Notes under the pieces: model-generated
Databases searched by the model: none
Told to the model about the DNA's origin: nothing
Seen by the model: only the letters and a program-made list of their open reading frames with translations
Source: Candidatus Heimdallarchaeota archaeon
GTDB lineage: Archaea > Asgardarchaeota > Heimdallarchaeia > JABLTI01
DNA: 64,000 nucleotides
Direction of reading: 5' to 3'
NCBI GenBank assembly: GCA_018238155.1
Contig: JABCTZ010000017.1
Span: 116,949 to 180,948 of the forward strand
Part shown: piece after piece, positions 47,777-63,849 of the stretch
Numbering within the stretch: the first letter of the stretch is position 1
How the letters are laid out: every line of letters starts with the position of its first letter
Position numbers and translations under genes: made by a program

Positions 47777-47945
47777 GATTTGAAATCTCCAACCAAATGC
47801 AAACAATCAAACAAAAGAATGCTTGAGTCAGCACAAGAAAATAGTAGATGAAACACAAATTAAAAGGTAAGCATACATAAGCTAAACAAACGAAAGATTC
47901 AAAAAGAAAAAAAGAAAAAGAAAAAACAACAAAAAAGCAAATACA

Positions 47946-48054
47946 GGACGAGTGGTCTAGCCTGGCATGACGCTTCCTTGACGACGATAAAAAATTGCGA
48001 TTTTTGTCGGCTGAATGGAGGCTATCGAGAGTTCGAATCTCTTCTCGTCCACCA
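47946..48054 (+). tRNA. tRNA-Val(GAC) with anticodon-loop intron (~47984-48015), encoded CCA
   Basis: Acceptor GGACGAG/CTCGTCC, Val-type D arm GTGGTCTAG..ATGAC, stem CTTCC/GGAGG, T-loop TTCGAAT, intron hairpin CGATAAAAA/TTTTTGTCG. Confidence 0.9.
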
Positions 48055-48055
48055 A

Positions 48056-48634
48056 TTATTTTCTTCTTTCTTGTTTTCTATATCCTATTATTCCGAGAAT
48101 ATTTTTCTCTATGAATTCTTTTGTATCGACCCCTTCCATCAATCTCTCTTTTATTTCTTCTCTTATTTTTTCTTCCCCCTCTTCTCCTATTTCTCTATAT
48201 TTTCTTGTTCTCTCTTTTTCTTCTCTCTCTAGTTCTTCTTCTACTCTTCTCTTTCTCTGCGTTAGTTCTCTTATCTCTTCTCTTTTTTCTTTTTCTTGAT
48301 ATGCAGGCTCATTGTAATAATTCCACATTCTCTTCACTATTTCATTCTCTTTGTTTAGTGAGTATTTCCTTTTCTCATGTTTTAGTATCCCTTCTTTTGT
48401 TCCTTTTTGCAATTTCTTTATGAGCGTGCTTTTTTCCCAAGGCATTTTTTCTAGTAGTTCTGCTAGCGAGTATTTTTTCGAGTGTCCTCTCGTTATTTTT
48501 TCTTTTACGAATTCATTTGCTATTTGATATAGTATTTCTCCTTCTTTTTTCCTTATTTTTTTTATTTGCTCCACTACCTCCTTTCTTTCTTCTGTTTTTT
48601 TCGTCAATATTTCTAGTTCCTCTGTTATTGTCAC
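48056..48634 (-). CDS. Coiled-coil/wHTH protein (terminal gene of the Cas1-like operon)
   Basis: YSLAELLEKMPWEKSTLIKKLQKGTKEGIL..EKRKYSL wHTH pattern; stop codon 1 nt after the tRNA CCA; two decayed copies downstream. Confidence 0.75.
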   Translation of the reverse strand: MTITEELEILTKKTEERKEVVEQIKKIRKKEGEILYQIANEFVKEKITRGHSKKYSLAELLEKMPWEKSTLIKKLQKGTKEGILKHEKRKYSLNKENEIVKRMWNYYNEPAYQEKEKREEIRELTQRKRRVEEELEREEKERTRKYREIGEEGEEKIREEIKERLMEGVDTKEFIEKNILGIIGYRKQERRK

Positions 48635-48651
48635 TTTTTTCGGCCTCTTGT

Positions 48652-50535
48652 TTAGTTTATCCCCCGAATTGTCAGTGGTCTGAATCCTGTTGTTCTATGT
48701 TCTCTTCTCAAATTTCTTACCAATCGTTCTTGTTCTTCTCTTCCCATTACTTCCCATACTTTCTCTTTCATCACTGCCCACGGCAAGTATTCTTCTCCAT
48801 GGTGTTCTATTTCATAGTAATTACTTCTCCTGTAGAAGTTGTTTACCCATTGTTTTCCCTGCAAGTAGTACTCTCTTATTCCATTTTTCGTTTTTCTTCC
48901 ATTTATTTTCCCTCTTTTCATCTCTTCAATTATTTCTCTTATCTGCTCTTCTAGTTCTGTTCCATGTTTTACATAGAATATTTTCTGTCTGTTTCTCCCT
49001 CTGTAATGTTGTATCTTATCTACTTCTATCATCTCGTTTTGTAGTGTTTCTAGTAGATATGGTAAGGTTAGTATTTTTTCTTGTTCTCTCATATCCAGAT
49101 GGAATCCAAACACTCCTCCTCGCGTTTTTCCATGGCATATACCTGGTAGTCCATCCCAACAGAATTCTATGTCCATGAGGTATTCCTTCACAAATTCTCC
49201 TGCAATTCCGAATTCTCCATTTATCAGTGTATCAATTGCTGAGTAAGCGAAAAATCTCTTATATGGTATTGACATATCCGTTACTAATCTGCTATCTACT
49301 CTTCCCGGAAAGTCTATTCCCAATTTCTTTAGATAGATTCTTACTATTCCCCACATTTCTTTTCCTGCTCTCATCTCATAGAGATTCCATTCTTTCGCTG
49401 TTATCCATCTTTTATTATTCACTTCTAAGATTAATTCTTCTATTTTCTTTCTTGCCCTTTTCACTTCAATTTCATTTGCTTTTTTGAATTGTTCATTTAT
49501 TTTCTCTATCACTGTTATTCTGCTTAGGAGCATTGCTATACAGAATTCTTTGTTAACGATCTTTATTTCCCGTAATAATCTCAGTAATCCTATATGTTGT
49601 TTCACTGGCGGTGGACTTACTAATTTCTCTACTCCCAGTATAACATCTATCTCTCTGTATCCTTTCTCATTTAGGAGTTCGACTATTGTTTCATAATCCT
49701 CTTTTCTTTTAGCAACTACATATTTAATATCATTTAATTTTCCTATCCAATTATTGACAGCCATTGTTTTTGTTCTAAAATTAAAACTGGCATCTCTCAG
49801 ATCATGGATAACTATCCCGAATTTATCACTCGAGTAAAGTACTCCCGGTTCCCCTCCTCCTGTTGCTTTTGTGAAATTCTCTTTATACTCTACTCCATTT
49901 TCTATGTTGTAATGAACTCTGAATTCTTCTTTTTTCTTATCGAATAGTGTCTTGTAATATGTATCACAATTTTCGCATCTTAGTACTGAGCTTCCCAGCT
50001 TCGTGATGTAGTTATTTCCTAGAGTCGTTAATTCTGCTTGGCATTTCTCGTTTGCACAATGATAGCTTATCCTAAACCCGTTTTCCGTTTCTGTTATTCT
50101 TCTGTTTTCGTCTAGGAAAACTTCTAGTTTTCTGCTATATAGCTGATTTTCTACTTCGATGAAATCATCACAAGCTACTGTATTTTTCGTTAATTTTGCT
50201 TTTACTCTATCTGCCCTGATTATTATTCCTCTTTCTGCTAGTTCATCATGGTAGGTGCATCTTCTATTTTTACTTTTATTTTTACATTCGGAACATTTCC
50301 TTCCGAGATATTTTGGCCACTGCGCATTCGTTGTTTTATAATACGTAACTCCTCCCTTCGGTCTAGCTACTCTTTTTCCCTCAATTAACCCCTTTTTTTC
50401 TAATATCTTAACATGTTTATGCACTACTCCATTTGATCGATCAAGCTCTTCAACTAACTCTGAAATTGTTACAGGATATTTTTCCGGTTTTTTTCTTATT
50501 ATCCTGAGTATTTCACTTTGAATATCTGTTGCCAT
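48652..50535 (-). CDS. Divergent Cas1-family (Cas1-solo/casposase-like) protein with N-terminal wHTH and two Cys clusters
   Basis: aa~235-570 follow Cas1 motif order: LNDIKYVV..ELLNEKG; YE387MRAGKEMW (EGxAAxxYW); DFPGR; AYSAIDTLINGEFG (AxDPxNAxLNYGY); PGICH468; FHLD481MRE484QEK (LxLDLMEEFR). Confidence 0.75.
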   Translation of the reverse strand: MATDIQSEILRIIRKKPEKYPVTISELVEELDRSNGVVHKHVKILEKKGLIEGKRVARPKGGVTYYKTTNAQWPKYLGRKCSECKNKSKNRRCTYHDELAERGIIIRADRVKAKLTKNTVACDDFIEVENQLYSRKLEVFLDENRRITETENGFRISYHCANEKCQAELTTLGNNYITKLGSSVLRCENCDTYYKTLFDKKKEEFRVHYNIENGVEYKENFTKATGGGEPGVLYSSDKFGIVIHDLRDASFNFRTKTMAVNNWIGKLNDIKYVVAKRKEDYETIVELLNEKGYREIDVILGVEKLVSPPPVKQHIGLLRLLREIKIVNKEFCIAMLLSRITVIEKINEQFKKANEIEVKRARKKIEELILEVNNKRWITAKEWNLYEMRAGKEMWGIVRIYLKKLGIDFPGRVDSRLVTDMSIPYKRFFAYSAIDTLINGEFGIAGEFVKEYLMDIEFCWDGLPGICHGKTRGGVFGFHLDMREQEKILTLPYLLETLQNEMIEVDKIQHYRGRNRQKIFYVKHGTELEEQIREIIEEMKRGKINGRKTKNGIREYYLQGKQWVNNFYRRSNYYEIEHHGEEYLPWAVMKEKVWEVMGREEQERLVRNLRREHRTTGFRPLTIRGIN

Positions 50536-50594
50536 TTCTAAACCTCTGAAGTGATCGAGTATTCTTTTTCATTTTTTCTTCTCCTCTTCTCTCC

Positions 50595-51206
50595 TCACTC
50601 ATTTGTTTCTGACCAAAACCTGTTATACGTTTCTTCTCTTCCTATTCCTTCATCATAATTTGCATATACTCCTATTCGAAAATTCTGCAATGCTTCCTCA
50701 ACAATTTCCTCTGTTGAGCTATTGCTATTTTCATAAGTCGTTTTTGAGAAATTCTCTACTAATTCAACAATATCTCCCTCAGTTATTTTCTGTAGGATAG
50801 TATCAATTTCTTTGTCTTGTTCCTGATAGTTATTATTGAATTCCTTAGTTAGAACGATTTCTTTCTCAATTCTCCCTATTTCTTTAAGGAGATCTGTTTT
50901 CAATTCTTGTTCTGATTCTGCATAGCAAAAACATGGATCGATAAATGCCATTCTAGAATATAGTTCATTATTTGTTAGCGTGTGTTTTATCCACAGTTTA
51001 TTTTCCTTCTTCTTTGTTATCATTTTCTCTTTTTCTATCAAAGAATCTATTGCTACTGCAACTGACTTTTCGTGTCGATTAATCTCACAAGCAAGCCCTT
51101 TTCGACCTCTAACATACCATTCCCCTTCACCCTTTATTTCTCTCAGAACAAAGAACCAAATAATTTCTACTTCCACTTTATTCAAACGTTCAAAATTATC
51201 AATCAA
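50595..51206 (-). CDS. Putative wHTH DNA-binding protein
   Basis: GRKGLACEINRHEKSVAVAIDSLIEKEKMITKK HTH-wing pattern; first gene of the Cas1-like operon. Confidence 0.6.
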   Translation of the reverse strand: MIDNFERLNKVEVEIIWFFVLREIKGEGEWYVRGRKGLACEINRHEKSVAVAIDSLIEKEKMITKKKENKLWIKHTLTNNELYSRMAFIDPCFCYAESEQELKTDLLKEIGRIEKEIVLTKEFNNNYQEQDKEIDTILQKITEGDIVELVENFSKTTYENSNSSTEEIVEEALQNFRIGVYANYDEGIGREETYNRFWSETNE

Positions 51207-51284
51207 TTATTTTTGTCCCTTCATATCACTGCTAGTATTCTACTGACAAAAATAGCTTTATAAAGTGCTAAATGGTCTCTTTTT

Positions 51285-52064
51285 TTGTTCTTTAAAAGGA
51301 TAATTTTCCAGTGTTTATTGAGAAAATTGCTTGAGAACGATTTCATCCTTAGTAAAACTGGTTTTATTGCCTACTTAGAATGTCCATTCCAGTTCTATCT
51401 ACAGAAGGAACTACAACATCACAAAGGATCAGGTGGAAACATTGATCACTCTGGATATGAATCCTTTTTACAGAGAGGTCTGGAAAAACACAAATGGTTG
51501 GAATGTTTCTATCAAGAGTATGGAACAAAAATAAGGAATGATGTTTATCCTAGATTAGACCAATCGGATGAAGATGCTTTTTGGAAACAACAATTCATAG
51601 ATTTTGAAATTAAACGATATGTCTCAGAGCCTAAATTTTGGGAACCTGTAGCAGTGGAGTATTATTTGAACGATGGAGTTTTTTGTGGGAAAATTGATCG
51701 AATTGATAGAATAAGTGATTTAGGTCATTGCCGTATAGTAGAATATAAATCGTCTCCGAAAGAATTCGATAAAGAAGAATTACTTTTCTATGCAGTTCTT
51801 TTAGCAAGTCAGTTACCTACTTTGGATTTACCAGATATTACTAAAGTGACTGAGTTAGGCATGTATTATTATTCATCTTCAGAATATTTTTCAACATTAA
51901 TTACAATGGACAATATTGTTACTTTTAGAGAGTATCTTGAAGAAATACTCCTGGAAATAGTAAATCCACAATCAATCAAAAAGAAAAAAAGATGTGATTT
52001 TGCTGTTACTACTTGTCTTTTTAGGCATATTTGCCAAAGAATTAACATTAAAAACAGAAAATAA
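51285..52064 (+). CDS. Cas4/AddB-like PD-(D/E)XK nuclease with four-Cys cluster
   Basis: LSKT....YLECP.QFY, G...H, AVE, GKIDRID, IVEYKS, LLFYA, C-terminal C......C.....C. Confidence 0.85.
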   Translation: MFFKRIIFQCLLRKLLENDFILSKTGFIAYLECPFQFYLQKELQHHKGSGGNIDHSGYESFLQRGLEKHKWLECFYQEYGTKIRNDVYPRLDQSDEDAFWKQQFIDFEIKRYVSEPKFWEPVAVEYYLNDGVFCGKIDRIDRISDLGHCRIVEYKSSPKEFDKEELLFYAVLLASQLPTLDLPDITKVTELGMYYYSSSEYFSTLITMDNIVTFREYLEEILLEIVNPQSIKKKKRCDFAVTTCLFRHICQRINIKNRK

Positions 52065-52200
52065 TTGGACTTTCGAAAATATAGGTTCTTTATCCTTGGA
52101 AAAATTTCGGACTTTCTAATTTTATACCTTTTTTTTGATGGAAAAAAATCGGACTTTCGAAGTTCTTGCAGACCAAAGGATATTTTTTCGGACTTTCGAA
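52056..52200 (+). repeat. Four phased direct repeats, core (TC)GGACTTTC(G)AA
   Basis: Cores start at 52067, 52109, 52151, 52190 (spacing 42/42/39 bp). Confidence 0.85.
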
Positions 52201-52511
52201 AAAACTACTTTGCTAAGAATACCAAAAATCGTCTCTAGAACCGTCTAAGTAACAAAAATGCTGCGGAAATACCTCCCTTTTATACTTATACTGATTTTCT
52301 ATTGGTGTCTAAATTTTGTTTCAGAATATTTGATAAGTTTTTGAAATAATTGTTGAAAAAAAGCTAATTGAAAAATCCCAATTGAAGCTCACATGTCAAA
52401 CCGTAAAAGAGGACTCCATCTTGCGATGGAGAAATAGGCGTACAGCCGTCTATTGATTTCCTTACCTTTTATTTGAGCATTAATTTCAAATATACAGAAA
52501 TTCTGAAATCT

Positions 52512-54161
52512 TTACAAAAATATCTCATCTCGCCATTGTTTCTTGTATCGATAAAATTCCTTTACCGTAAGTGTAGGAAAATCGATTGAATAATTATAAA
52601 ACGTTTCAAGAAAGTGAAGGAGAAGTCTACAATTAATACGGGAATTTATTAATTTAAGGCTAAAAATTTCTTCTAAAATAACGGCTACCTCGTCACTAAT
52701 TTCACTTACTAAAACATAATTTATCTTGGGTTTAAGTAGGGGTAGTATAATTTCTAATTCAGTACTTGGTTTTAATGGAAGTGTTATTGGGCTTGAATTA
52801 ACAACTTGATATGTAATATTACTTTTATTCTGTTCTAATATTTCGTAGAGAGTTCTAGTATGAGGTTGATTATTCAATATCTCTTTCAGCATTGAATATG
52901 GTAAACCTCTCTTATTCTTCTCCATATTAGAATAACTGCCTTGTGCAATTTTAAATTGATCATCCATAACAACATAAGTTCTTCTAGCACGGTATTCTTT
53001 AAGGAAATTACCTAAACCAAAAATAAAGAGAGAGTCAAATAAATCAAAATTGTAATAACCATCTTTTGTTAGAACATCTTTTTTCAAACCTTGAAATACA
53101 ACATATTTTTTATTATGTAGAAGATAATCCAATAAATCATTGCTTTTTTTAGGGTTTAAAGAACCGATTAATTCGACATAACGAAGTTTATCTCGAGCTA
53201 ATAAATAGATCATAACTGATCCGTTGGAGTTTTGTGGAACTTTTACTTCAAAACTATTCAAGTTTAGAAACTGCTTAAAATCAAGAAGATATCGTTCACT
53301 CGCGCTAGTAAATGAGATTCGATTCTTGAATGATCCATCAGCATCCATTGCACCACGCCAGTAGATATTCCGGAAAGGTCTTCCAAGTTGTTTGAATAGA
53401 AGTGGTTCTCGGAGTGAAGCATACTTTGCTCCTTCGATAGTGTGGTCGGTTAAAAAATTAATAATTCGAACTACCATAGCAGAACGTAACTCAATATTCC
53501 AAGCATTTCCTGTAAGAAACATCTCTCCAGGGTCATTGAAATTCTGTTCATAAAGTTTTGAGAGTAACAGCAAGAATTCTTTGGTTTCATCAGTTACCCG
53601 GAAATTATGCCTGTGTAAATGCCCGTCCCCATTTGCTACACCGCAAAGATACACAATAGCATTAGTTAATTTCGTTGGAATCGAGTATTTCTTTCCTCGA
53701 GCACTTTCAAAGTATAATTCCTCAATTTTTGGGTTAGTTAAGGGAAGATCAAGGATAGCACAAGCACAACGATACAACGGATAGGGCATTGCTCCCCGTT
53801 TGAGATACGTTTCAAATCTTCTCTTCCACTCCATGATACCTGAATTAATGGATCTGTAAAAGTAATCTCGAGTGAATTCAGCGATAAGCAAAATCCTTTT
53901 TTTAATTAGTGTTTTTTCCTCATCTGTGAGAACGAGGAAAGGAAATCTCGAGAGTATCCTGTCATTATCTTTTTCCTTTACAAAATCGATTTTTCTAACC
54001 AAAATTGGAAAAAGATGTAAGGTGTAATTGGTAGTATCAAAAAAAGAATTTATTCTTTGTATTCCAGCTGTAAGTAGCTTGTTTGCAGTTACCCATTTAT
54101 TCATTGGAGTGGGTTTCGCATCAAGTAACAAAGGATCATTTTGCCAAGTAAGAGGAGCCAA
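52512..54161 (-). CDS. Free-standing double-motif LAGLIDADG endonuclease-like protein with possible HTH
   Basis: YLCGVANGDGHL and YWRGAMDADGSF; later IAQGSYSNMEKNKRGLP XRE-like helix; no intein termini. Confidence 0.75.
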   Translation of the reverse strand: MAPLTWQNDPLLLDAKPTPMNKWVTANKLLTAGIQRINSFFDTTNYTLHLFPILVRKIDFVKEKDNDRILSRFPFLVLTDEEKTLIKKRILLIAEFTRDYFYRSINSGIMEWKRRFETYLKRGAMPYPLYRCACAILDLPLTNPKIEELYFESARGKKYSIPTKLTNAIVYLCGVANGDGHLHRHNFRVTDETKEFLLLLSKLYEQNFNDPGEMFLTGNAWNIELRSAMVVRIINFLTDHTIEGAKYASLREPLLFKQLGRPFRNIYWRGAMDADGSFKNRISFTSASERYLLDFKQFLNLNSFEVKVPQNSNGSVMIYLLARDKLRYVELIGSLNPKKSNDLLDYLLHNKKYVVFQGLKKDVLTKDGYYNFDLFDSLFIFGLGNFLKEYRARRTYVVMDDQFKIAQGSYSNMEKNKRGLPYSMLKEILNNQPHTRTLYEILEQNKSNITYQVVNSSPITLPLKPSTELEIILPLLKPKINYVLVSEISDEVAVILEEIFSLKLINSRINCRLLLHFLETFYNYSIDFPTLTVKEFYRYKKQWRDEIFL

Positions 54162-54221
54162 GTAGTGCCACCAAAGATGTTTATCACTAGCTTTGTTGTG
54201 TTAAACTACTTAAACTTAAAG

Positions 54222-54923
54222 CTAAAGTGACACTTTCTCATTAGCTTTTTCAATTAGCCAATTCATGTCAAGAATTTCTAAAGAATCAATGGCAAAGATT
54301 TCAATACCAGCTTCCCAAAGAATAAGCCCAATTCCTTGAGCTGCAAAACCTAGTTTACCTGTGATGTTTACTTTTAATTTTTGAGTGATTGTATCATAAT
54401 AATTCTCTAAATAAAAATCACGCAGAAATCGCATTTCAATAGATGAAGATGAATTATTCCTTAGATAAAGAGCTCCTGCGAGTATGACTTGATCTGTGTC
54501 TTCTGCATTGATTGTTAGATCAGTAAAAATCTGTTGTGTTAGGTTGGCAATGTCTACAGAATGCTTTGCTAATACCCAATACACTCGGGCACGAACACTA
54601 GGGGATATATCAATGATTAATGGAGAAATATATTGTACACTTTCTTTCTGTTGAAATGATTCAAGATAGAGTACGGATTTTTCTCGTAGAAAGCTTTCAT
54701 GATGTGATAGGAGCTTTTGTGAAATAGAAATTTTTACCTCTTCAGATACCTTCTTCTTTGCTATGAGAAAGTCTAACAAGGTGTTAAGTTGGGGTGCTGT
54801 TAGAGAACTCAAAGTATTCTCATATAACTCCTCAAATTCTTCTAAATTATCTTCTACTAGGAGAATTTGTTTAAAGATTATTTCCGGAATTGTTTCTTGA
54901 AGTTTTTTCTGAAGAAAGGTCAT
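54222..54923 (-). CDS. HEAT-repeat-like helical protein
   Basis: SFLREKSVLYL and SPSVRARVYWVLAK HEAT-like units. Confidence 0.55.
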   Translation of the reverse strand: MTFLQKKLQETIPEIIFKQILLVEDNLEEFEELYENTLSSLTAPQLNTLLDFLIAKKKVSEEVKISISQKLLSHHESFLREKSVLYLESFQQKESVQYISPLIIDISPSVRARVYWVLAKHSVDIANLTQQIFTDLTINAEDTDQVILAGALYLRNNSSSSIEMRFLRDFYLENYYDTITQKLKVNITGKLGFAAQGIGLILWEAGIEIFAIDSLEILDMNWLIEKANEKVSL

Positions 54924-54933
54924 AATATCACAT

Positions 54934-57036
54934 TTATTTAGTAATTTCTAAAGCGAATGTTTCTGTGCGGTAATCATGAAACATTGAGTCTATATTTGGA
55001 AGAAAATCATCCTTCACTTTGATGTAAAGTTGACTTTTATTACAATTAATAGTTTTTTGATGTAAATTTATTTCTCCAATAGCAAACCTGATTTTTGAGT
55101 AGAGATTTGGTTCATACTGAAATTCTCCTCTATCCTTACAGCTTATTGCTTGCATCTCTCCATTTTTAAAGATAAGGTGATCCACCTCAAAATGCTTGCC
55201 ATAAAAGGAAAAGAGAACGTTTGAAACAACTTGAAAATCCATTCTTTCAAGCAATTCTCTGGTGTGTTTCTCGTATTCTGTACCGGATTCAGTTTTGAAT
55301 CTTTTAAACTTTATAATATTGCATAATGGGGGTAAATTATTCGAAATAATTTCCCACTGTTCTAGTAAAATTTGATATTCTCTTCGGTTGTAAAACATTT
55401 TGCTTCTAGCTTTGAGAATATGATAATTTCCATTCTTTGCTAAAGTAGAATGAAGTGTCTGCAAGATTTCTTCTACATTATCAATTGGTTGAAATACACT
55501 GAACTTCTTTTGTAGTCTCATATCAAAATCTGCACTATTATTTAATCGATCCGAGATTACCTTGTAAAGTAGAGAGTAATCAGTTTTAGTTGTGTTCATA
55601 AGAAAACAATATTGCTCAATAAGTTGTTTAGCTTTTGCAGGTTTAGTATGTGTTTGCCGTAATACTTTGAATGCTTCTTGTTCTAAATCTTTTTTTGTAG
55701 TTAGTTTATGTGTAACTGGATGAATGAGTTGATTCATTCTTTTATTGTCTTTTAATAATGTTAAGAACTCATTAATACGCTCTAAAAATAGCGTTGGTTT
55801 TTTAACAAGTGCATTCACCTCATCCCTTCCAATAAGAATGATCTTTTTTGCTAAACCATAAAGTTTAGTTATATTCTTACCAAATTCTGTAGTAGTTACC
55901 TCAAAATTAAGAAAAACTATTGAGCAAATATTGCTCTTTTTTATTTCGTCTTGTAAATAGAGTAACTCGCCTAATATTTCAGTAAGCGGCTCATTATTTT
56001 TTTCTGCTGTTTTAATCTCGATTAAACCTATTAATTCATTCCAAATAAGCAATCCATCAAGACGTTTAGTAATTTGGGGACGATTCGAAGTTGTAATTTT
56101 AGTTTCCGAGAATAACTTGCTGTTTTCCTCTGTAAAAACACTTTTTAAAATCGTCCAAACATTCGACTCAAAGTCCTTATCAACATGTCGAGATTTATCT
56201 GTCCAAGCAGTTGTTAATTGTTGTATATTATATCCTGCTTGTCTTAGCTCCTTGGTTAGTGTTAGATCTTGTTTTGCATGTTTTGATAGTTCAAATATTG
56301 GGTGAGTGAATATTATTTTTATTTTCTTTCTGGGACCGTAATATGGAATAGTTATTTTATTTACAAGTTGTTTCTTTTTCTTTCTTTGTGAAAACTTTAG
56401 AATCGTTTTTGATCCATCGTCAATAGTTCCAACGACATAGTTATTTTTTAATGTCCACCAGTCTTTAATATATCTGCCAAGCTCTTGTGATAACTCAATA
56501 TCTCCAGATTCTCCTAGAGAACAATAACATTCAATTTGTAGTTGCTTTGTGTTTGTTTGGTAGATATCAAATGAATTTCCTCTTCTTTTACTTCCTAAAA
56601 GCCTTAGTGTTTTTTTCTCTTCTTTGATGTTGTTATATTCAAGTAGTTCTCTGTTTTTGAAAAACAACCCTGTTGGTTTTAATCCATTAATGATACAGGT
56701 GATTTTAGAATCTCTATATTGAGAGGTTATCTTATTCATCTCATTCATGTTTGATAATACTAAGAACCATCCGTTAGTTTTATTTTCAAGAGAGGCTATT
56801 TGGTTGATTATTATCTCTTTATTTCGATTGTCCTCATTCACAATAATGATCATTCTTATTGTATTTTTGTCTTCTTTACTTGATCTTACTATATCCATCC
56901 AATTCAGAATTCTTACAGGAATATGTATACTTGACAGAGTTAGTTTTCTATTGATTATGATTGTTCCATCTGTAAAAATCTCGAATGTTGTTCCTCTCCC
57001 AGGTTTTCCAGCTTTGTAGAGTAATTTTCTTATCAA
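54934..57036 (-). CDS. Large protein with two putative PD-(D/E)XK nuclease domains
   Basis: DFE...RLDGLL...IEIKT and EYE...FEVDHLI...ISCKD (Mrr/NERD-like). Confidence 0.65.
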   Translation of the reverse strand: MIRKLLYKAGKPGRGTTFEIFTDGTIIINRKLTLSSIHIPVRILNWMDIVRSSKEDKNTIRMIIIVNEDNRNKEIIINQIASLENKTNGWFLVLSNMNEMNKITSQYRDSKITCIINGLKPTGLFFKNRELLEYNNIKEEKKTLRLLGSKRRGNSFDIYQTNTKQLQIECYCSLGESGDIELSQELGRYIKDWWTLKNNYVVGTIDDGSKTILKFSQRKKKKQLVNKITIPYYGPRKKIKIIFTHPIFELSKHAKQDLTLTKELRQAGYNIQQLTTAWTDKSRHVDKDFESNVWTILKSVFTEENSKLFSETKITTSNRPQITKRLDGLLIWNELIGLIEIKTAEKNNEPLTEILGELLYLQDEIKKSNICSIVFLNFEVTTTEFGKNITKLYGLAKKIILIGRDEVNALVKKPTLFLERINEFLTLLKDNKRMNQLIHPVTHKLTTKKDLEQEAFKVLRQTHTKPAKAKQLIEQYCFLMNTTKTDYSLLYKVISDRLNNSADFDMRLQKKFSVFQPIDNVEEILQTLHSTLAKNGNYHILKARSKMFYNRREYQILLEQWEIISNNLPPLCNIIKFKRFKTESGTEYEKHTRELLERMDFQVVSNVLFSFYGKHFEVDHLIFKNGEMQAISCKDRGEFQYEPNLYSKIRFAIGEINLHQKTINCNKSQLYIKVKDDFLPNIDSMFHDYRTETFALEITK

Positions 57037-57044
57037 GTCGAATC

Positions 57045-57108
57045 ACACTATCTTAACACTATATCAACACTATAGTATAATAATACTTAAATCTTATGGT
57101 TACACTAT
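57045..57108. promoter_or_regulatory. ACACTAT direct-repeat operator in divergent promoter
   Basis: ACACTAT at 57045, 57056, 57067 (11-bp phase) and 57102. Confidence 0.65.
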
Positions 57109-57126
57109 AGTTCTTAGTGAACTAAG

Positions 57127-57285
57127 ATGCCTGTGAAATTCAAACGAAAAGTCATAGATTTGAGTAATAGTTTAGTCGTGAATATACCCCGTGAAATTGC
57201 AGATGAATTGGGAATAAAGAAAGGAGATACGATCATCGTAACCCTTGAGAACAGTCATTTTTGTGGAAGGAAAGAAGAAAAATAA
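57127..57285 (+). CDS. AbrB/MazE/SpoVT family DNA-binding protein (52 aa, not in ORF track)
   Basis: MPVKFKRKVIDLSNSLVVNIPREIADELGIKKGDTIIV. Confidence 0.85.
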   Translation: MPVKFKRKVIDLSNSLVVNIPREIADELGIKKGDTIIVTLENSHFCGRKEEK

Positions 57286-57418
57286 CAGGCAATAATCTGA
57301 AATAAAATTCAAAGCGGTTCATGCAAGCGTGATTTATCGCTGTAAGCGATGAATAGCGAGGACACGAGTCTGCGCCCAGCAAAGGTTTGAGTCATTTCTT
57401 TTTGATTGCAATATTACT

Positions 57419-58528
57419 TTATTTTCTTTTCTTGCGTTCAGCAACTTCTTTTATTCCCGCAAGTAACGGAGCTTTAATCTCCTCTTCTTTGTTTTCTTCT
57501 ACTTCCTCCTCTTCTTTTCTTTGTGGTAAATCAATTGTTTCTTCATCAGCTATTCCATAATTGGTTAAGAAAAACTCTGTCGTTTCGCATGGAAGAAATG
57601 AACAACTATCTACTTTCATTCGTCGAGAATTATCCCTTAATTTCCTCAAGAACAAACGCATATCCGAAGCATGCTCTATAGCTTCTCCACCTGCAGGTTT
57701 AATTGGAGAATATTTGTGATTAAATCCATGATTAGCAATAACATGATTTGTGAAGATAATAGCACAATTAAACCCAAGAGCTAAACGCTTAAGAAACGCT
57801 AACAAACTTTGCAAATGCTTTTGCATGATGATGGTTTCATTTATTGTTATGTATCTGCTTTCAAAAGGGGTCATCAATGAATCAATGATTACCAATCGGG
57901 TATCAAATGCTTGCACGTATCCTGGCAGTCGATCTATTGCTTGTTGGAAGTTCCTCATTTGTTCTGCTTGTACTATGAATAAGTTGCTTAGTAATTTCTC
58001 TTCTGCTATTTCGAAACGCTTTCCTATCCGTAAATAGTGTTCACAATGAAAGAAACTGTTTGTTGTAATATAGATAACTGGACTATCCAATCCACCTTTT
58101 TCTACCGGCATTTGTGCAGTCACCGCTGCTGTCATACAAGTTTGCGTTTTTCCTGAGCGATACTCTCCAACGATTTCCGTTAGCATTCCTGTTCTAAAAC
58201 CCCCTTCAAGCAAGGTATCAATCTCTTTTGAACCACTAGTAAAACTTTTCTGGGATTGGAGCTGATTCTCCCAATATTCTTCTACGTTCTGAAATAATTT
58301 TCCCCGAAACATATCTTGAGAAGCTCGACAAAGAGCTTGAGCAGTTCTCTCACTTATATTTGGTATTTTGCAATAATCAGTTTCAGTTAATACTGTCAGT
58401 GCTCGTGCATCATAGATGCCAAAATCTTTGAGTGCTTTAATAGAAATTTTCGGAATTCCATATTTTAATCTATTTTTCTCAATAAAATCTGCTATATCAT
58501 ATCTCACATTAATTGGCATTTTCTTCAT
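57419..58528 (-). CDS. RadA/Rad51 paralog, probably degenerate
   Basis: HhH N-domain, GEYRSGKT, LVIIDS, GG....H....RL.LRK; catalytic YIDTE replaced by YITTN. Confidence 0.85.
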   Translation of the reverse strand: MKKMPINVRYDIADFIEKNRLKYGIPKISIKALKDFGIYDARALTVLTETDYCKIPNISERTAQALCRASQDMFRGKLFQNVEEYWENQLQSQKSFTSGSKEIDTLLEGGFRTGMLTEIVGEYRSGKTQTCMTAAVTAQMPVEKGGLDSPVIYITTNSFFHCEHYLRIGKRFEIAEEKLLSNLFIVQAEQMRNFQQAIDRLPGYVQAFDTRLVIIDSLMTPFESRYITINETIIMQKHLQSLLAFLKRLALGFNCAIIFTNHVIANHGFNHKYSPIKPAGGEAIEHASDMRLFLRKLRDNSRRMKVDSCSFLPCETTEFFLTNYGIADEETIDLPQRKEEEEVEENKEEEIKAPLLAGIKEVAERKKRK

Positions 58529-58575
58529 TTATACACTGAAAAATTTTCTTTAAAAACAACAAAAATTGAATGTTT

Positions 58576-58610
58576 GGTAGTTCACGGTTCAAATCCGGGA
58601 TCGCCCACCA
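58576..58610 (+). repeat. tRNA 3'-fragment repeat R1
   Basis: GGTAGTTCACGGTTCAAATCCGGGATCGCCCACCA (3 mismatches to R2). Confidence 0.92.
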
Positions 58611-58629
58611 TTCTCTTTTCATTCTTTTC

Positions 58630-58860
58630 TTATAATTGCTCATAAAATTCGTCTAGAGTGATTTTTGCTAATCGTAGTGCTCCTCTCAAAGTTCCTGTTT
58701 TTAGTTCTTTATGTAGTGGAACTACGGTACCAACTTTCCCCTCATTTGTTTGCTTAGAGAGTCGAACATGACTTCCTTTCCTTCCTGAGATACTAAACCC
58801 AAATTTATTACATAGAATTTTGATAACTTTTTCACCTGAAACAGGTTTATACTTTGGCAG
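58630..58860 (-). CDS. hicA: HicA family toxin (CTG start; not in ORF track)
   Basis: (M)PKYKPVSGEKVIKILCNKFGF....RKGSHVRL...VVPLHKELKTGTLRGAL; GGAG upstream of CTG; overlaps hicB end. Confidence 0.85.
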   Translation of the reverse strand: MPKYKPVSGEKVIKILCNKFGFSISGRKGSHVRLSKQTNEGKVGTVVPLHKELKTGTLRGALRLAKITLDEFYEQL

Positions 58861-59083
58861 TCTTATCTACTCCCTTTGGTGAAACTTCAAAAGTAGTGAT
58901 TATTGGATGAGTGTCAGTTGTTAGTGGGAACTCTTCGAGATATAATTCTGTTGCTTCCACTAAATTTTCTAGTGCTTTCTCAATTGTTTTTCCCTGACTT
59001 ACTGTGCCTACTTGAGGACATTCTGCAACGTACATATCCTCTTCTTTGTAGATAACTGCTGTCAATGTAGACATCTTTATCAT
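58847..59083 (-). CDS. hicB: HicB family antitoxin (short form)
   Basis: YVAECPQVGTVSQGKTIEKALENLVEATELYLE. Confidence 0.9.
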   Translation of the reverse strand: MIKMSTLTAVIYKEEDMYVAECPQVGTVSQGKTIEKALENLVEATELYLEEFPLTTDTHPIITTFEVSPKGVDKTAKV

Positions 59084-59146
59084 TTTGTACTACCTCACTA
59101 TTATTCTTTAATTTTCTTATAAAAACCAAACTCTTATTTTAAATCA

Positions 59147-59181
59147 GGAAGTCCCCGGTTCAAATCCGGGATCGCCCACCA
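59147..59181 (+). repeat. tRNA 3'-fragment repeat R2 (best-preserved copy)
   Basis: GGAAGTCCCCGGTTCAAATCCGGGATCGCCCACCA: variable loop, perfect T-arm, 3' acceptor strand, ACCA. Confidence 0.95.
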
Positions 59182-59623
59182 ATTATTTTCTTCTTTCTTG
59201 TTCTCTATACCCTATTATTCCGAGAATATTTTTCTCTATGAATTCTTTTGTTTCTATCCCTTCCATCAATCTCTCTCTTATTTCTTCTCTTATTTTTTCT
59301 TCTTCCTTTTCTCCTATTTCTTTATATTTTTTCGTTATCTTCTTTTTCTAGTTCTTGTTCCAATCTTCTCTTTCTCTGCGTTAGTTCTCTTATCTCTTCT
59401 CTTTTTTCTTTTTCTTGATATGCAAGTTCATTGTAATAATTCCACATTCTCTTTACTATTTCATTCTCTTTGTTTAGTAAGTATTTCCTTTTCTCATGTT
59501 TTAGTATCCCTTCTTTTGTTCCTTTTTGCAGTTTCTTTATGAGCGTGCTTTTTTCCCAAGGCATTTTTTCTAGTAGTTCTGCTAGCGAGTATTTTTTCGA
59601 GTGTCCTCTCGTTATTTTTTCTT
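59182..59623 (-). pseudogene. Truncated, frameshifted copy of the 192-aa wHTH gene (duplicate of 48055-48504)
   Basis: Near-identical DNA beginning exactly after CCA (ATTATTTTCTTCTTTCTTG); small deletion, 5' part missing. Confidence 0.88.
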
Positions 59624-59720
59624 GTAAAACACTATTCTTTTTGATATTGTGCAATATTGTTATAAACACAAATAATTAATAGTATATTCCTCACATTTTT
59701 TAAATACTCTAATGTGAGAT

Positions 59721-60740
59721 TTGAGTAAAATTGAGAGTGTAAGAATGTCACTAACTGAGAACTCTAATTTTCCTAATTTTTCTTATTCAGATGCAATGTT
59801 GTTTTCTGTTCCCAAAGGTGATCTTTATCCGATTGGTTTGTTAACTGATAAAAAACAATCTGGAAAAAGAAATGATTTAGATATTAAGATAAAGATTCTC
59901 TCCGAGCTTAGAAATAGTTTAGATGAAACTGGAAATAATATAATAACCGAAATGCCTCTTCCTGAAAGATTTTCTAAAGCTAACGTTCTTGAAAAGTGGT
60001 TATTAAACACAAATCAATATTTCAATAAGGTTGAGGATGAAATATCCGCTGAAAAAGATTCCTCTTTTAGTTTACTCATTGAAACTCTTGAGCTTAAAGA
60101 AAAAATTGAATATAAAGTTCAAACTAATAATTATCAAAATATTGATCGCTTAATTAAACTCTATGATCGGAAATTAATTGATGCGTTTAAACTTATTTAC
60201 AAATTAATGCTATCAATCCGAACTAATTTGAGTATAATGTTTCTTGATTCAGAACTTCCCCCCGAATTTATTTCCACTATAAGTAATACAATGAACTCCT
60301 CATTAACTTTTATTGAATTTCTTCAATCTGAACAAGATTCAATTTTTGTTGATTTAAATAAATATAAATCCGGACGAACAACTGTAAAAAGAACTAAACC
60401 AATTTTAGCTAGAATTGATGCATTAGATGAAGATCATAATAAATTGCTGCTAAATTTCCAAAGATTGCTTTTCTTCATAGAAATTTGGAATTCCCCAACC
60501 TTGGAAGTATTATTCACTGATCAAGACATCCATTATGATATTAAGAATTTTGAATCCCATCAAGGATTTTTCATTAATTCATTAAATAAATTGAACCAGT
60601 TTGCAAAAGATTTTCATCACAAGGTAATAAATGCTGCTATGGAACGCAAACAATCCATCCCATTTTCACTAAAGGAAAAGGATTCAAGGAAAGACGATGA
60701 TGCTATCTCTTTATTTGCAAAAATAATTCACTCCTATTAA
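59721..60740 (+). CDS. Helical protein of unknown function upstream of a PIN gene
   Basis: 339-aa ORF, 19 nt before the PIN gene; no motif recognised. Confidence 0.65.
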   Translation: MSKIESVRMSLTENSNFPNFSYSDAMLFSVPKGDLYPIGLLTDKKQSGKRNDLDIKIKILSELRNSLDETGNNIITEMPLPERFSKANVLEKWLLNTNQYFNKVEDEISAEKDSSFSLLIETLELKEKIEYKVQTNNYQNIDRLIKLYDRKLIDAFKLIYKLMLSIRTNLSIMFLDSELPPEFISTISNTMNSSLTFIEFLQSEQDSIFVDLNKYKSGRTTVKRTKPILARIDALDEDHNKLLLNFQRLLFFIEIWNSPTLEVLFTDQDIHYDIKNFESHQGFFINSLNKLNQFAKDFHHKVINAAMERKQSIPFSLKEKDSRKDDDAISLFAKIIHSY

Positions 60741-60759
60741 GATATGAGAGGTATGGGAA

Positions 60760-61491
60760 ATGAAGTATGTTTGTTTTGACACAAACTATCTCTTGGCTGT
60801 TTTAATACCACTAGATAATTGGAAATCTGTAATTAAGATGTGTGAAGCTGAAATTGCCGAACTTGTTAATAGAAAGAAAATTAAAGTTTTTATTACTGAT
60901 AAAGTTGAATCCGAAGCTAACAATAGGATAATGGATATTTCCAAGAATGCTTCCCAACATTTTAGAAAATTATTTCATAAATTGAAGTCTACTGATTTAA
61001 AGAAGCCTTTTAATAAATCAAGCATTTTGAGTTTACGAAAAGAATTACAATTAATCTTAAGAGACGAAAATGACAAAGTGATTAGAAATCAACTATACTT
61101 CTATGAAGATTATCTTTTAAAAAATATAAATGATTTTCCTAAAAAACCCAAGAAGATTCTAATTGCTGAGTGTTTGAGTGAAATAAATGAAATTTCATTG
61201 AGATTTGATACTGAGTTGCAGGTTTACAATATAATGATTATTCAAAAACCAACTATTCAAAATGAACTTGATAAACTCAATGCAATAGAAAACAGAATAA
61301 AAGTTATGGTTCATAATTATAGTGATAGCGAGATTTTAGCCACATTTATTTATTTTATAAATGAAGAAAATGTTGAAGGGATATTCGTTACTCATGATTT
61401 TGTTGATTTATTATTAAACAGTTTATATCTTGAAGAAGAATTTAAAGAAGTTCATATAGTTAGACCACAATATGTAAAATTCCTTGTTTAG
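60760..61491 (+). CDS. PIN-domain ribonuclease with large helical insertion
   Basis: VCFDTNYLL, ITDKVESE, DSEIL, FVTHD. Confidence 0.78.
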   Translation: MKYVCFDTNYLLAVLIPLDNWKSVIKMCEAEIAELVNRKKIKVFITDKVESEANNRIMDISKNASQHFRKLFHKLKSTDLKKPFNKSSILSLRKELQLILRDENDKVIRNQLYFYEDYLLKNINDFPKKPKKILIAECLSEINEISLRFDTELQVYNIMIIQKPTIQNELDKLNAIENRIKVMVHNYSDSEILATFIYFINEENVEGIFVTHDFVDLLLNSLYLEEEFKEVHIVRPQYVKFLV

Positions 61492-61507
61492 TTTTTTCAA
61501 TTATTTA

Positions 61508-61531
61508 GTACTAAATCTGAATCGTTCAACA
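61508..61531 (+). repeat. Degenerate tRNA 3'-fragment repeat R2b
   Basis: AAATCT-GAATCGTTCAACA vs AAATCCGGGATCGCCCACCA (14/20, mostly transitions), 3 nt before the stop of the third wHTH-gene copy. Confidence 0.6.
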
Positions 61532-61534
61532 CTT

Positions 61535-61826
61535 TCATTCTTTTCTTCTGTATCCTATTGCTTCTAGTGTTTTTTTCGTTACAAGTCCTCTTACTTCTCC
61601 CCCCTCAACAAATTCTGCAATTATTTCCTTTCTAAATTCCTCTTCTTCTTTCTTTGTTGCTTCTCTATATTTTCTCCTTTTCTTTTTCTCTTCTTTCTCC
61701 AGTTCTTTAACCAATTTTCTCTTTTTTTGTATCAAGGTCCTAATTTCTTCTGTTTTTTCCTTTTCTTGATAGTTTGGTTCATTGTAATAGTTCCATATCC
61801 TTTTCACCAATTCATTTTCTTTCCTT
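61535..61826 (-). pseudogene. Third, more diverged 3' fragment of the 192-aa wHTH gene
   Basis: KENELVKRIWNYYNEPNYQEKEK...IGYRRKE vs KENEIVKRMWNYYNEPAYQEKEK...IGYRKQE. Confidence 0.8.
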
Positions 61827-62144: not shown

Positions 62145-62171
62145 AAGCAGTATTGAAATGTTGATTTATTC

Positions 62172-62201
62172 TTCCCTGTTCAAATCCGGGATCGCCCACC
62201 A
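62172..62201 (+). repeat. tRNA 3'-fragment repeat R3
   Basis: TTCCCTGTTCAAATCCGGGATCGCCCACCA. Confidence 0.92.
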
Positions 62202-62293: not shown

Positions 62294-62530
62294 TTGACTA
62301 CAATATCCGTTTCATTAGACGAAGAACTTCTTGAATGGTTAGATCAGCTTATTGAACGTGGTGTGATCAAGTCTCGTAGTGAAGCCGTTCGTGGTGGAAT
62401 TTTCTCTTATGTTCAAGAAAAGCTTGGTATTTCTTCTCGAGCTGATTTACGTGAGTTTCTTAAGAAACAGCAACAGAAACCTTTTCAATCTGGTGTTGAA
62501 GCAATTCGTTCAGTGAGGCAAGAAGAATAA
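62294..62530 (+). CDS. Ribbon-helix-helix (CopG/NikR-type) antitoxin
   Basis: TISVSLDEELLEWLDQLIERGVIKSRSEAVR; 1-nt overlap with PIN gene. Confidence 0.88.
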   Translation: MTTISVSLDEELLEWLDQLIERGVIKSRSEAVRGGIFSYVQEKLGISSRADLREFLKKQQQKPFQSGVEAIRSVRQEE

Positions 62531-63009
62531 TGGCTCTTTATCTGGACACCAATGTCTTCTATCATGCTTATTGTCCTATTGAAGATGCTTCGATAGTTGA
62601 TTGGTTATTTTCTCAGGTTCATCCTGACTTTCCTGCTATTACTAGTGAGTGGTGTCTTATTGAGATGTTTCGAGCCTTCAAAAAACAAGTAAATTTGGGA
62701 ACTATCTCAGAAAAAAATGCTGAAATAGCTATTGACTTTTTTTTGAGTGATGTTGGAGAGATGGTTAAGAAAAAGCTCCTTTTACTTGCTCCCGTTTCTC
62801 ATGCTCTTCTTATTACTTCTCGAGAACATATCTTTGCTTCCAATCTATATGCTGCTGATGCCTTACATGCTACTACTGCTCTAAAATATAAAGCTAGAGC
62901 TTTCATTACTTTTGATTCTGACTTTAAATCCAATCTCAAATCCATGCCTATTTTTAATCCCTCTTCTCAAAATTTCAAAGCAAGTATTGGTAAATTGTTA
63001 TCAATTTAA
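62530..63009 (+). CDS. vapC: VapC/PIN toxin
   Basis: LYLDTNVF, TSEW..IE, LYAADALHATTA, FITFDSDF. Confidence 0.9.
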   Translation: MALYLDTNVFYHAYCPIEDASIVDWLFSQVHPDFPAITSEWCLIEMFRAFKKQVNLGTISEKNAEIAIDFFLSDVGEMVKKKLLLLAPVSHALLITSREHIFASNLYAADALHATTALKYKARAFITFDSDFKSNLKSMPIFNPSSQNFKASIGKLLSI

Positions 63010-63027
63010 TCAATATAGAAAAAAGCT

Positions 63028-63057
63028 TCCTCGGTTCAAATCCGGAATCGTCCACAA
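63028..63057 (+). repeat. tRNA 3'-fragment repeat R4
   Basis: TCCTCGGTTCAAATCCGGAATCGTCCACAA. Confidence 0.85.
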
Positions 63058-63528
63058 TTATCTTTTCTCTTGTTTATTGTATTCTTCCCATAAAATTATA
63101 TTGAATTTTTCGTTTATGCTCTCTATTATATCATTCCACTCATCGTGCACTTTCTTCTTTAGTTCTTTATCTAGTGTTAGCATTCCCTCTGCGTAATAAA
63201 CTGCTGTTGCAACCATTAAACAATCAATATGATCACTGTGACTTTTTCGCAGTTCGCTAGCTAATGCTTGTATTTCTGCATAATGTATGGGAATAATTTC
63301 TATTTTTTCTAGGTATTGTATTGCCGTAATTCCCTGTGTTAATTCTTCAGTTGATATCTTCTTCTTATTGACTAACTTGCTTCCTTTTGCAGACACTTCA
63401 AAAATCACCAACTCTGATCTGATGATCACTTCGTTTTCCATTAGTTCTAGTATTGCTTTTCTTGGGAATTGTACAATATCTACAGCTAAAAATGGCATAA
63501 AGAAAGAGCTATCCAATAACAGTTTCAT
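63058..63528 (-). CDS. vapC: VapC/PIN toxin
   Basis: LLLDSSFFMP, SELVIFE, DHIDCLMVATA, LTLD; stop abuts R4. Confidence 0.9.
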   Translation of the reverse strand: MKLLLDSSFFMPFLAVDIVQFPRKAILELMENEVIIRSELVIFEVSAKGSKLVNKKKISTEELTQGITAIQYLEKIEIIPIHYAEIQALASELRKSHSDHIDCLMVATAVYYAEGMLTLDKELKKKVHDEWNDIIESINEKFNIILWEEYNKQEKR

Positions 63529-63758
63529 TTCTCTGTATCCTTGCTTAACTTCCTTCTATGTTCTTTGAATTCTTCAAAGGTAATTGTGACTTTTGCTGGT
63601 TTTTCCAATAATTCTTCAGGTGTTGCAACCTTTTCTACCACTAATCTTCCTTGCACTATTCTGTACAAAACTCTTTGACCTTTTTTTAGTCCTATTTTTT
63701 CTCTGACTTTTTTAGGTGGAAATAACTCACCTTTAGAACCTACTTTACCTATAGACAT
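63525..63758 (-). CDS. AbrB/MazE family antitoxin
   Basis: KVGSKGELFPPKKVREKIGLKKGQRV; 4-nt overlap with PIN gene. Confidence 0.9.
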   Translation of the reverse strand: MSIGKVGSKGELFPPKKVREKIGLKKGQRVLYRIVQGRLVVEKVATPEELLEKPAKVTITFEEFKEHRRKLSKDTEK

Positions 63759-63814
63759 AATTTCACCAGATAAACATTCTTTTCTCTGGTATAAAAACCT
63801 TTCATAAAATCTTT

Positions 63815-63849
63815 GGAAGTCCCTGGTTTAAATCTGGGATCGCCCACCA
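63815..63849 (+). repeat. tRNA 3'-fragment repeat R5
   Basis: GGAAGTCCCTGGTTTAAATCTGGGATCGCCCACCA (3 C>T vs R2). Confidence 0.93.

Follow-up and report, generated by a model that had tools for sequence, protein, structure and literature searches.

Relics beside a tRNA-Val(GAC) gene point to serial insertion of a Heimdallarchaeial element family at tRNA CCA ends

The window analysed here, i.e., the last 64 kb of contig C13 in a metagenome-assembled genome (MAG) of a Candidatus Heimdallarchaeota archaeon (G000; 4.08 Mb in 46 contigs, with an estimated contamination of 5.9%), contains an island anchored at a tRNA-Val(GAC) gene, in which the last gene of an element that we call E1, encoding a 192-aa winged helix-turn-helix (wHTH) protein, is found once intact (copy 1) and twice as a relic (R2 and R2b). 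Comparison of these three copies shows that, on no fewer than three separate occasions, an element end of this kind was inserted at a tRNA-type CCA in the island, and it maps the junction to within CCACCA. The repeats that flank the inserted units are, judged by their sequences, not copies of the resident tRNA end. We consider it likely that the island was built by serial site-specific insertion of a Heimdallarchaeial element family at tRNA 3′ ends, with tRNA-Val(GAC) as the hot spot, and that R2 and R2b are relics of earlier elements. All of the genomes compared are MAGs or metagenome contigs. A first-pass annotation had described the copies as one element end at three stages of decay, and had explained them by an acquisition resembling that of CRISPR arrays; its observation is partly confirmed, and its interpretation is partly supported.

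The argument starts from five features, with the basis of each assignment in brackets:
47946-48054, plus strand: tRNA-Val(GAC), the anchor of the island (Rfam; ARAGORN with introns allowed).
48056-48634, minus strand: copy 1, the intact 192-aa winged-helix gene (wHTH192), last gene of E1 (open reading frame, ORF).
59182-59623, minus strand: R2, relic of a second element of the copy 1 sublineage (alignment to copy 1).
61513-61532, plus strand: decayed tRNA-Val 3′-end repeat before R2b (positional orthology with locus L065 only).
61533-61826, minus strand: R2b, relic of a third element, of the sublineage found at tRNA-Ala on contig C43 (homology to the gene end).

The tRNA-Val(GAC) gene has a 32-nt intron, an encoded CCA and the acceptor stem GGACGAG/CTCGTCC. 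ARAGORN in its default setting returned zero tRNAs from the window; the tRNAs carry introns and were recovered via Rfam and intron-allowing ARAGORN. The stop codon of wHTH192 begins 2 nt after the tRNA-Val CCA, leaving a single nucleotide between them, so that the gene end does lie directly after the intact CCA, as had been claimed. wHTH192 had zero matches to Pfam. Its structural model contains helices at residues 32-49, 57-63 and 68-80 and strands at 84-87 and 90-93, with a predicted local distance difference test (pLDDT) score of 67-82 in that part, and this modelled topology is that of a winged helix, i.e., a three-helix bundle followed by a β-hairpin wing. The best Foldseek matches were all wHTH proteins of the ArsR, MarR, GntR or TubR type, albeit weak ones (E ≥0.03).

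Over 450 nt, R2 differs from copy 1 (48055-48504) by 21 mismatches and a net 8-nt deletion, corresponding to ~95% identity; approximately the first 44 codons are gone from its 5′ end, and the reading frame is shifted. R2 starts immediately after the CCA of the repeat at 59157-59181, in exactly the same register as copy 1, and the earlier description of a near-identical, truncated and frameshifted copy after a CCA is thus borne out. The two copies are 95% identical from CCACCA rightward and share only generic tRNA similarity leftward, and it is this comparison that places the junction within CCACCA, in line with the first-pass placement at or near CCA. The copy 1-like sequence in R2 ends at ~59620, where it gives way to the p339 cassette ~60 nt inside the left end that this cassette has in L065. 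An internal deletion would have fused the R2 wHTH gene to this next cassette, removing the first ~60 nt of p339-p243.

R2b proved to be of a different descent. It is 94.3% identical to the wHTH gene on C43 over 280 nt and 73% identical to copy 1, while copy 1 and the C43 gene are 76% identical to each other, and a maximum-likelihood tree groups R2 with copy 1 and R2b with C43, each pair with 100% bootstrap. R2b therefore represents another sublineage rather than an older stage of copy 1, and the pairwise comparison that had been proposed as a check yields no single decay series. The terminal branch of R2b in this tree is four-fold longer than that of R2, and R2b is probably the older of the two relics. 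Divergence from copy 1 does rise numerically with distance from the tRNA, as had been noted; however, this trend is confounded, because R2b belongs to the C43 lineage and its gap to copy 1 is mainly one of lineage. The first-pass claim that R2b follows a CCA stands for the gene end only, since no CCA precedes R2b and the repeat profile fails to detect any tRNA tail at that spot; the alignment score of the preceding sequence to the repeat is equalled by 14% of random window segments. This stretch sits where L065 has an intact repeat closing the same p339-p243 cassette, and it is counted as a decayed repeat solely because of this match in position.

We also weighed against these data whether R2 and R2b could stem from a local duplication of a segment, from homologous recombination or from mis-assembly of the MAG. 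The array does lie at a contig end, the last repeat being 151 nt before the end of C13, and the contamination estimate given above also speaks for such an origin. However, R2b has its closest relative, a paralogue, on another contig rather than in copy 1, the deletion joint that leads from R2 into the next cassette is unique, and a collapsed repeat would yield a single copy instead of two that differ in their flanks. Similar arrays are, in addition, present in five other MAGs or metagenome contigs, and we regard this explanation as highly improbable.

A 25-nt tRNA-tail sequence occurs five times in the island, at 58586, 59157, 62177, 63033 and 63825, where none is expected by chance, and the repeat profile delimits the corresponding repeats as follows:
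58574-58610, plus strand: tRNA-Val 3′-end repeat 1 (ATCGCCC allele), which closes E1/RadA.
59145-59181, plus strand: tRNA-Val 3′-end repeat 2.
62168-62201, plus strand: tRNA-Val 3′-end repeat 3.
63022-63057, plus strand: tRNA-Val 3′-end repeat 4, with 3 mismatches.
63813-63849, plus strand: tRNA-Val 3′-end repeat 5.

The repeat allele has the T stem CCCGG/CCGGG and the acceptor 3′ strand ATCGCCC. An origin of these repeats from a different tRNA species is rejected, since the allele is found intact as tRNA-Val(GAC) in sister genomes (G005, G008, G001, G002 and L067), and repeats that would be annotated as coming from another tRNA are thus tRNA-Val alleles. The resident tRNA-Val of G000 has the same intron but a different acceptor, as given above, and a different T stem, while the tRNA-Val genes of G003, L065 and L106 represent a third allele. 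Within the survey (window 47946-48054 plus L057, L058, L059, L060, L063, L065, L067 and L106), the 5′ and 3′ strands of full tRNA-Val alleles change together from one genome to the next. At least three tRNA-Val(GAC) alleles are present in a single genus, with complete compensation in the acceptor and T stems (acceptors GGGCGGT/ATCGCCC, GGGCGGG/CTCGCCC and GGACGAG/CTCGTCC). For a tRNA gene, tRNA-Val(GAC) evolves unusually fast in these two stems, and this may be linked to the repeated integration at the 3′ end.

The alleles bear directly on how the repeats arose. In the first-pass model, a staggered attack of a Cas1-like enzyme on the tRNA end would duplicate its ~35-nt tail, always on the tRNA-proximal, "leader" side. 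However, the repeat on the far (distal) side of the tRNA-proximal unit is of the ATCGCCC allele in G000, L065 and G003, whereas the resident tails are CTCGTCC or CTCGCCC and pair perfectly with their own 5′ strands; distal repeat and resident tRNA end differ at about half of the positions, including well-paired alternative T stems. The distal repeat is therefore not a duplicated target, and a duplication in the style of CRISPR or casposons is not supported. E1 itself has CTCGTCC on its left and ATCGCCC on its right, and the two flanks differ in L065 as well, which departs from a target-site duplication (TSD) of the tail; a short TSD of at most 6 nt, confined to CCACCA, is still compatible. On contig C6, which carries a paralogous element at tRNA-Leu, the two tRNA-Leu flanks do not match at 5 of 42 positions, and the T-stem changes are compensatory. 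The staggered-attack model also has points in its favour, namely a Cas1 fold with an intact catalytic tetrad in an E1 protein (see below), the decay gradient of the repeats, and the precedent of casposons, which insert at tRNA 3′ ends, can lie in tandem with a shared TSD between them, and may have TSDs of up to 35 nt (PMC4779613). Other marks of such a system were looked for and not found: PolB is missing from the Pfam, NCBIfam and PHROG matches of any E1 ORF and from the few C43 and C6 flank ORFs checked, no Cas2 family is among the window ORF matches, and no terminal inverted repeats were found at the E1 termini (search of 47900-58700) or, by inspection, at the C43 and C6 ends. Taken with the alleles, we judge this model quite improbable.

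Because copy 1 and R2 are alike only to the right of CCACCA, and because the distal repeats differ from the resident tail, we favour a serial insertion in which each unit brings its own tail. In this favoured reading, each unit would carry its own tRNA-end mimic and would recombine with the tRNA end in the chromosome, at CCA or beside it; the recombination could be conservative, or the insertion could duplicate up to 6 nt. Elements and small toxin-antitoxin cassettes would pile up in tandem between tRNA-Val and tRNA-Ala, each unit being closed by a ~35-nt copy of the tRNA-Val 3′ end. Copy 1 would then be the terminus of the intact resident E1, R2 the remnant of an earlier element of the same sublineage, and R2b that of a still earlier element, whose sublineage has an intact relative at tRNA-Ala on C43. 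New units would usually enter beside the intact tRNA and displace older ones outward.

Such a polar entry is modestly supported by the decay of the repeats. Counted from the tRNA outward, the mismatches to the repeat consensus are 0, 0, about 7, 1, 3 and 2 in G000, 2, 1, 2, 4 and 5 in G006, and 0, 1 and 2 in G005; the summed rank correlation with distance over the three arrays gives a permutation p of ~0.003, for a small number of related arrays and with one value estimated. The gradient, like the longer branch of R2b, is what an entry of units beside the intact tRNA could produce. Of the first-pass interpretation, the repeated insertion at a CCA in one register thus stands, the polarized order with the newest unit beside the tRNA gains modest support, and the comparison with CRISPR acquisition fails on the distal alleles.

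E1 comprises wHTH192, a 627-aa protein, p203, a PD-(D/E)XK nuclease, p549, p233, p700 and perhaps a RadA paralogue; the genes beyond wHTH192 are the following:
48652-50535, minus strand: 627-aa divergent Cas1-like protein (N-terminal wHTH, Cys clusters, then Cas1 fold).
50595-51206, minus strand: 203-aa protein (p203) of unknown family, conserved in the module.
51285-52064, plus strand: PD-(D/E)XK (Cas4-like) nuclease.
52512-54161, minus strand: p549, 549 aa, with a double-motif LAGLIDADG endonuclease domain.
54222-57036, minus strand: p233 and p700 (233 aa and 700 aa), the distal part of E1 (weak C-terminal NERD match).
57419-58528, minus strand: RadA/Rad51 paralogue, E1 cargo or a separate cassette.

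Cas1 was missed in the 627-aa protein by Pfam, NCBIfam, PHROGs, phmmer, a PDB profile search and a six-frame search with PF01867, while PF01867 was found in two of its homologues. In a Foldseek search of the PDB with its AlphaFold model (pLDDT 81), the top 29 matches were all Cas1 or casposase, with 4n06_B as the best (E 4e-6) and the casposase 6opm at 1e-3. Residues E387, H468, D481 and E484 correspond in the alignment to the catalytic residues of Cas1, and 25 homologues conserve them; by this modelling the protein has a Cas1 fold with conserved catalytic residues. Since no other recombinase is recognisable in the element, we tentatively, at a little short of an even chance, regard the Cas1-like protein as the most likely integrase, possibly helped by the wHTH protein that abuts the site.

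Among the other E1 proteins, p549 contains two LAGLIDADG motifs, matches PI-PfuI and I-Tsp061I, and is extended at length on both its N- and C-terminal sides; the genome encodes about 12 paralogues of it, at loci that also hold a Cas1-like gene or a fragment of one. A profile search of p700 against the PDB was uninformative, as were Atlas look-ups of p549 and p700. For the RadA paralogue, another species has a copy that is 93-98% identical (G008:C348, L081 1510-2523), directly beside a tRNA-Val-tail repeat, and may be a mobile cassette in itself rather than a part of E1. The best inverted pair in the search of E1, 51282-51317 with 58530-58565, was rejected as element ends: this 36-nt stretch, 81% complementary, lies upstream of the Cas4-like gene and of the RadA paralogue and looks like a shared promoter.

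The island also holds units that encode no Cas1-like protein:
58611-59144, minus strand: HicA/HicB-like toxin-antitoxin cassette, between repeats 1 and 2.
59624-61512, plus strand: p339-p243 cassette, self-contained between repeats in L065.
62294-63009, plus strand: RHH-PIN (VapBC-like) cassette, sharing 92-97% identity with cassettes of G003, G006 and L065.
63058-63758, minus strand: PIN/AbrB-MazE-like cassette, the stop codon of the PIN ORF lying at the first base after repeat 4.

The toxin-antitoxin cassettes, with sizes down to 0.5-0.8 kb, have the same CCA boundaries as the Cas1 elements, and the junction is thus not peculiar to the Cas1 module, which speaks against the tie between module and repeats that the first-pass annotation had proposed. 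These cassettes, bounded identically and lacking an integrase, raise the alternative of a conservative site-specific recombination of the attP × attB type at the tRNA, catalysed by an unrecognised or trans-acting recombinase (p700, p233, p203 or a chromosomal tyrosine recombinase), the Cas1-like, Cas4-like and LAGLIDADG module being cargo with a role in, for example, replication, defence or homing. The tRNA-end direct repeats resemble att sites, with the intact tRNA at one junction; L065 contains hybrid repeats that switch at the T loop, as expected for a 7-nt T-loop overlap; the Orc1/Cdc6 gene of the C6 element points to a circular, plasmid-like form; and in clades where the Cas1-like module is more distantly related, the wHTH end mostly has no tRNA beside it. 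However, PF00589 has only two matches in the genome, on contigs C8 and C19 outside the elements, and none in the element ORFs or in a six-frame search of the element loci, a model that divergent archaeal integrases could escape. Furthermore, the Cas1-like gene is the sole conserved enzyme gene with a known integrase fold, and it lies one gene from the junction in every tRNA-adjacent element. We hold the attP × attB alternative to be somewhat unlikely.

The element family, whose members span 8-10.5 kb and share a core of LAGLIDADG protein, Cas4-like nuclease, p203, divergent Cas1 and wHTH protein, was found only in Heimdallarchaeota, this being the label on the homologues, and a scan of genome contigs returned the same genus only. 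We surveyed 13 contexts of close homologues (≥47% identity) and found that approximately 10 adjoin the ends of tRNA-Val, Ala, Pro or Leu, or tRNA fragments or a tRNA-like end. A full tRNA-Val neighbours the wHTH gene in five of them, with the stop codon 1-5 nt from the CCA in this window, G005, L065 and L106, and with a predicted ORF overlapping the tRNA in L067/L094. In L097, the wHTH stop lies 8 nt from a tRNA-Pro CCA; the C43 gene is 61 nt from tRNA-Ala and 16 nt from a pseudo-CCACCA; and tRNA fragments or a tRNA-like end adjoin the gene in G003/L090, L098 and L093. No tRNA end lies beside the wHTH gene in the remaining three (C6, L066 and L095). Close homologues thus mostly, but not always, abut tRNA 3′ ends, and the finding named in the first-pass annotation as a refutation, homologues lying mostly away from tRNA ends, was not obtained.

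Complete paralogous elements show the same architecture. The C43 element lies at tRNA-Ala, with 3′ fragments of this tRNA at 3020-3041 and 128-149, 10.2 and 13 kb away, and the C6 element lies inverted at tRNA-Leu, with a tRNA-Leu fragment at 47944-47965, 8 kb away. Together with C13 (tRNA-Val plus five repeats), these loci have tRNA 3′-end direct repeats at both element ends and the intact tRNA at one. Between the wHTH gene and the closing tRNA-Leu fragment, the C6 element (L069 8066-9244) contains a gene for an Orc1/Cdc6 AAA+ replication initiator, suggesting a possible episomal form. On C43 (L068 13214-13274), 25 nt between tRNA-Ala and the element are duplicated at the distal fragment; next comes a degenerate stretch resembling a tRNA tail, whose terminal CCACCA lies 16 nt before the wHTH stop. 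The unit beside tRNA-Val on G004:C19 (L083 1992-5910) keeps the Cas4-like gene and a partial p549, whereas the Cas1-like and wHTH genes are lost, and decay can therefore also strip the tRNA-proximal end.

Several points weigh against serial insertion as we picture it. First, repeats of the host's own allele lie deep in the L065 array (430-470 and 1290-1330), and one is a hybrid that switches at the T loop; judged by sequence, this pattern is better explained by crossing over in the T loop or by gene conversion than by one crossover at CCA, and therefore either the crossover is not always at CCA or gene conversion occurs too. (One of the two lies only 17 nt past an ATCGCCC-type repeat.) Second, no intact tRNA with the acceptor of the repeats (GGGCGAT/GGGCGGT ... 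ATCGCCC) is present in the G000 assembly, where E1 abuts a different allele. Third, cassettes lacking an integrase share the boundaries of the elements, and the recombinase may therefore act in trans and need not be Cas1. Fourth, the tRNA-Leu subfamily is inverted relative to its tRNA, and no contig with the circular junction of an excised form is among the fetched loci. Finally, all of the genomes are MAGs.

The order p182, tRNA-Val, island, tRNA-Ala is native and recurs across genomes; the locus is syntenic from p254-p182-tRNA-Val, and tRNA-Ala(GGC) bounds the island in G003, G004 and G005, while in G000 the island reaches the contig end. G003, G005, G006 and L065 contain arrays of the same tRNA-Val repeats and the same toxin-antitoxin cassettes, at 87-97% protein identity and in different order. 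A tRNA-Val fragment on C26 (46243-46300; L075 8244-8300), 1.8 kb from that contig's end, may continue the island. This fragment and the intact tRNA-Val of G002 (G002:C88, L059) both have a ~30-nt insertion in the T loop, a second, non-canonical intron-like feature. A foreign block formed by GNAT259 and the tRNA was rejected, since L067 has the GNAT gene at the corresponding position too.

Among described systems, the nearest parallel is the tandem insertion of family 2 casposons at tRNA-Leu in Methanosarcina (PMC4779613). Both systems are mobile elements with a Cas1-family protein and accessory HTH proteins and nucleases, inserted at the 3′-distal part of tRNA genes in both orientations, and both reuse one site, forming tandem arrays with inactivated older copies. 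We note four differences between casposons and the present elements. First, the present elements are without PolB and terminal inverted repeats. Second, their flanking repeats are not duplicates of the resident target. Third, their Cas1 domain, which Pfam PF01867 does not recognise, is preceded by an N-terminal wHTH and Cys clusters. Fourth, a LAGLIDADG protein and a Cas4-like nuclease are in their core, and integrase-less cassettes are in the array. The islands at tRNA genes and the integrative plasmids or viruses of archaea that use a tyrosine integrase also have tRNA 3′-end direct repeats with the intact tRNA at one junction, and also grow by tandem accretion with decaying relics, and Orc1/Cdc6 in one present member adds to the likeness; in contrast, no tyrosine or serine recombinase is recognisable in the present elements, and units of 0.5-0.8 kb share the repeats. 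CRISPR arrays are comparable in that a Cas1-fold enzyme is nearby, ~35-nt direct repeats separate the inserts, and there are signs of one polar insertion end; however, the present inserts are genes or whole elements of 0.5-10.5 kb, the repeats are tRNA-derived and not duplicated from the proximal copy, and no Cas2 was found among the window ORF matches, all of this being known here from sequence. The published Tn7-like elements of Asgard archaea are unrelated to the present family, and no published description of it was found in the literature searched.

That elements accrete in tandem at a tRNA gene is ordinary, and R2 and R2b are what serial site-specific insertion followed by decay is expected to leave behind. 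The unusual feature is that the sole recognisable enzyme of integrase type is a cryptic Cas1 relative missed by standard sequence models. One could go further and propose a Cas1-family integrase, of neither CRISPR nor casposon type, that would recognise the T arm, acceptor and CCA of the tRNA and insert both cassettes and its own element in polar order, each closed by a ~35-nt tRNA-derived repeat. This we consider unlikely; if true, a Cas1 relative would here have built an array of gene cassettes, possibly a living intermediate between casposon integration and the building of CRISPR arrays, in the archaeal lineage closest to eukaryotes. R2 and R2b are direct genomic evidence that the family has moved in the past and has used one site repeatedly; they fix the junction at CCACCA and argue against the CRISPR-like reading. 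They also sharpen the question of whether insertion duplicates the tRNA tail, as in Cas1/casposase chemistry, or brings its own, as at att sites, and either answer bears on how Cas1 integrases were recruited.

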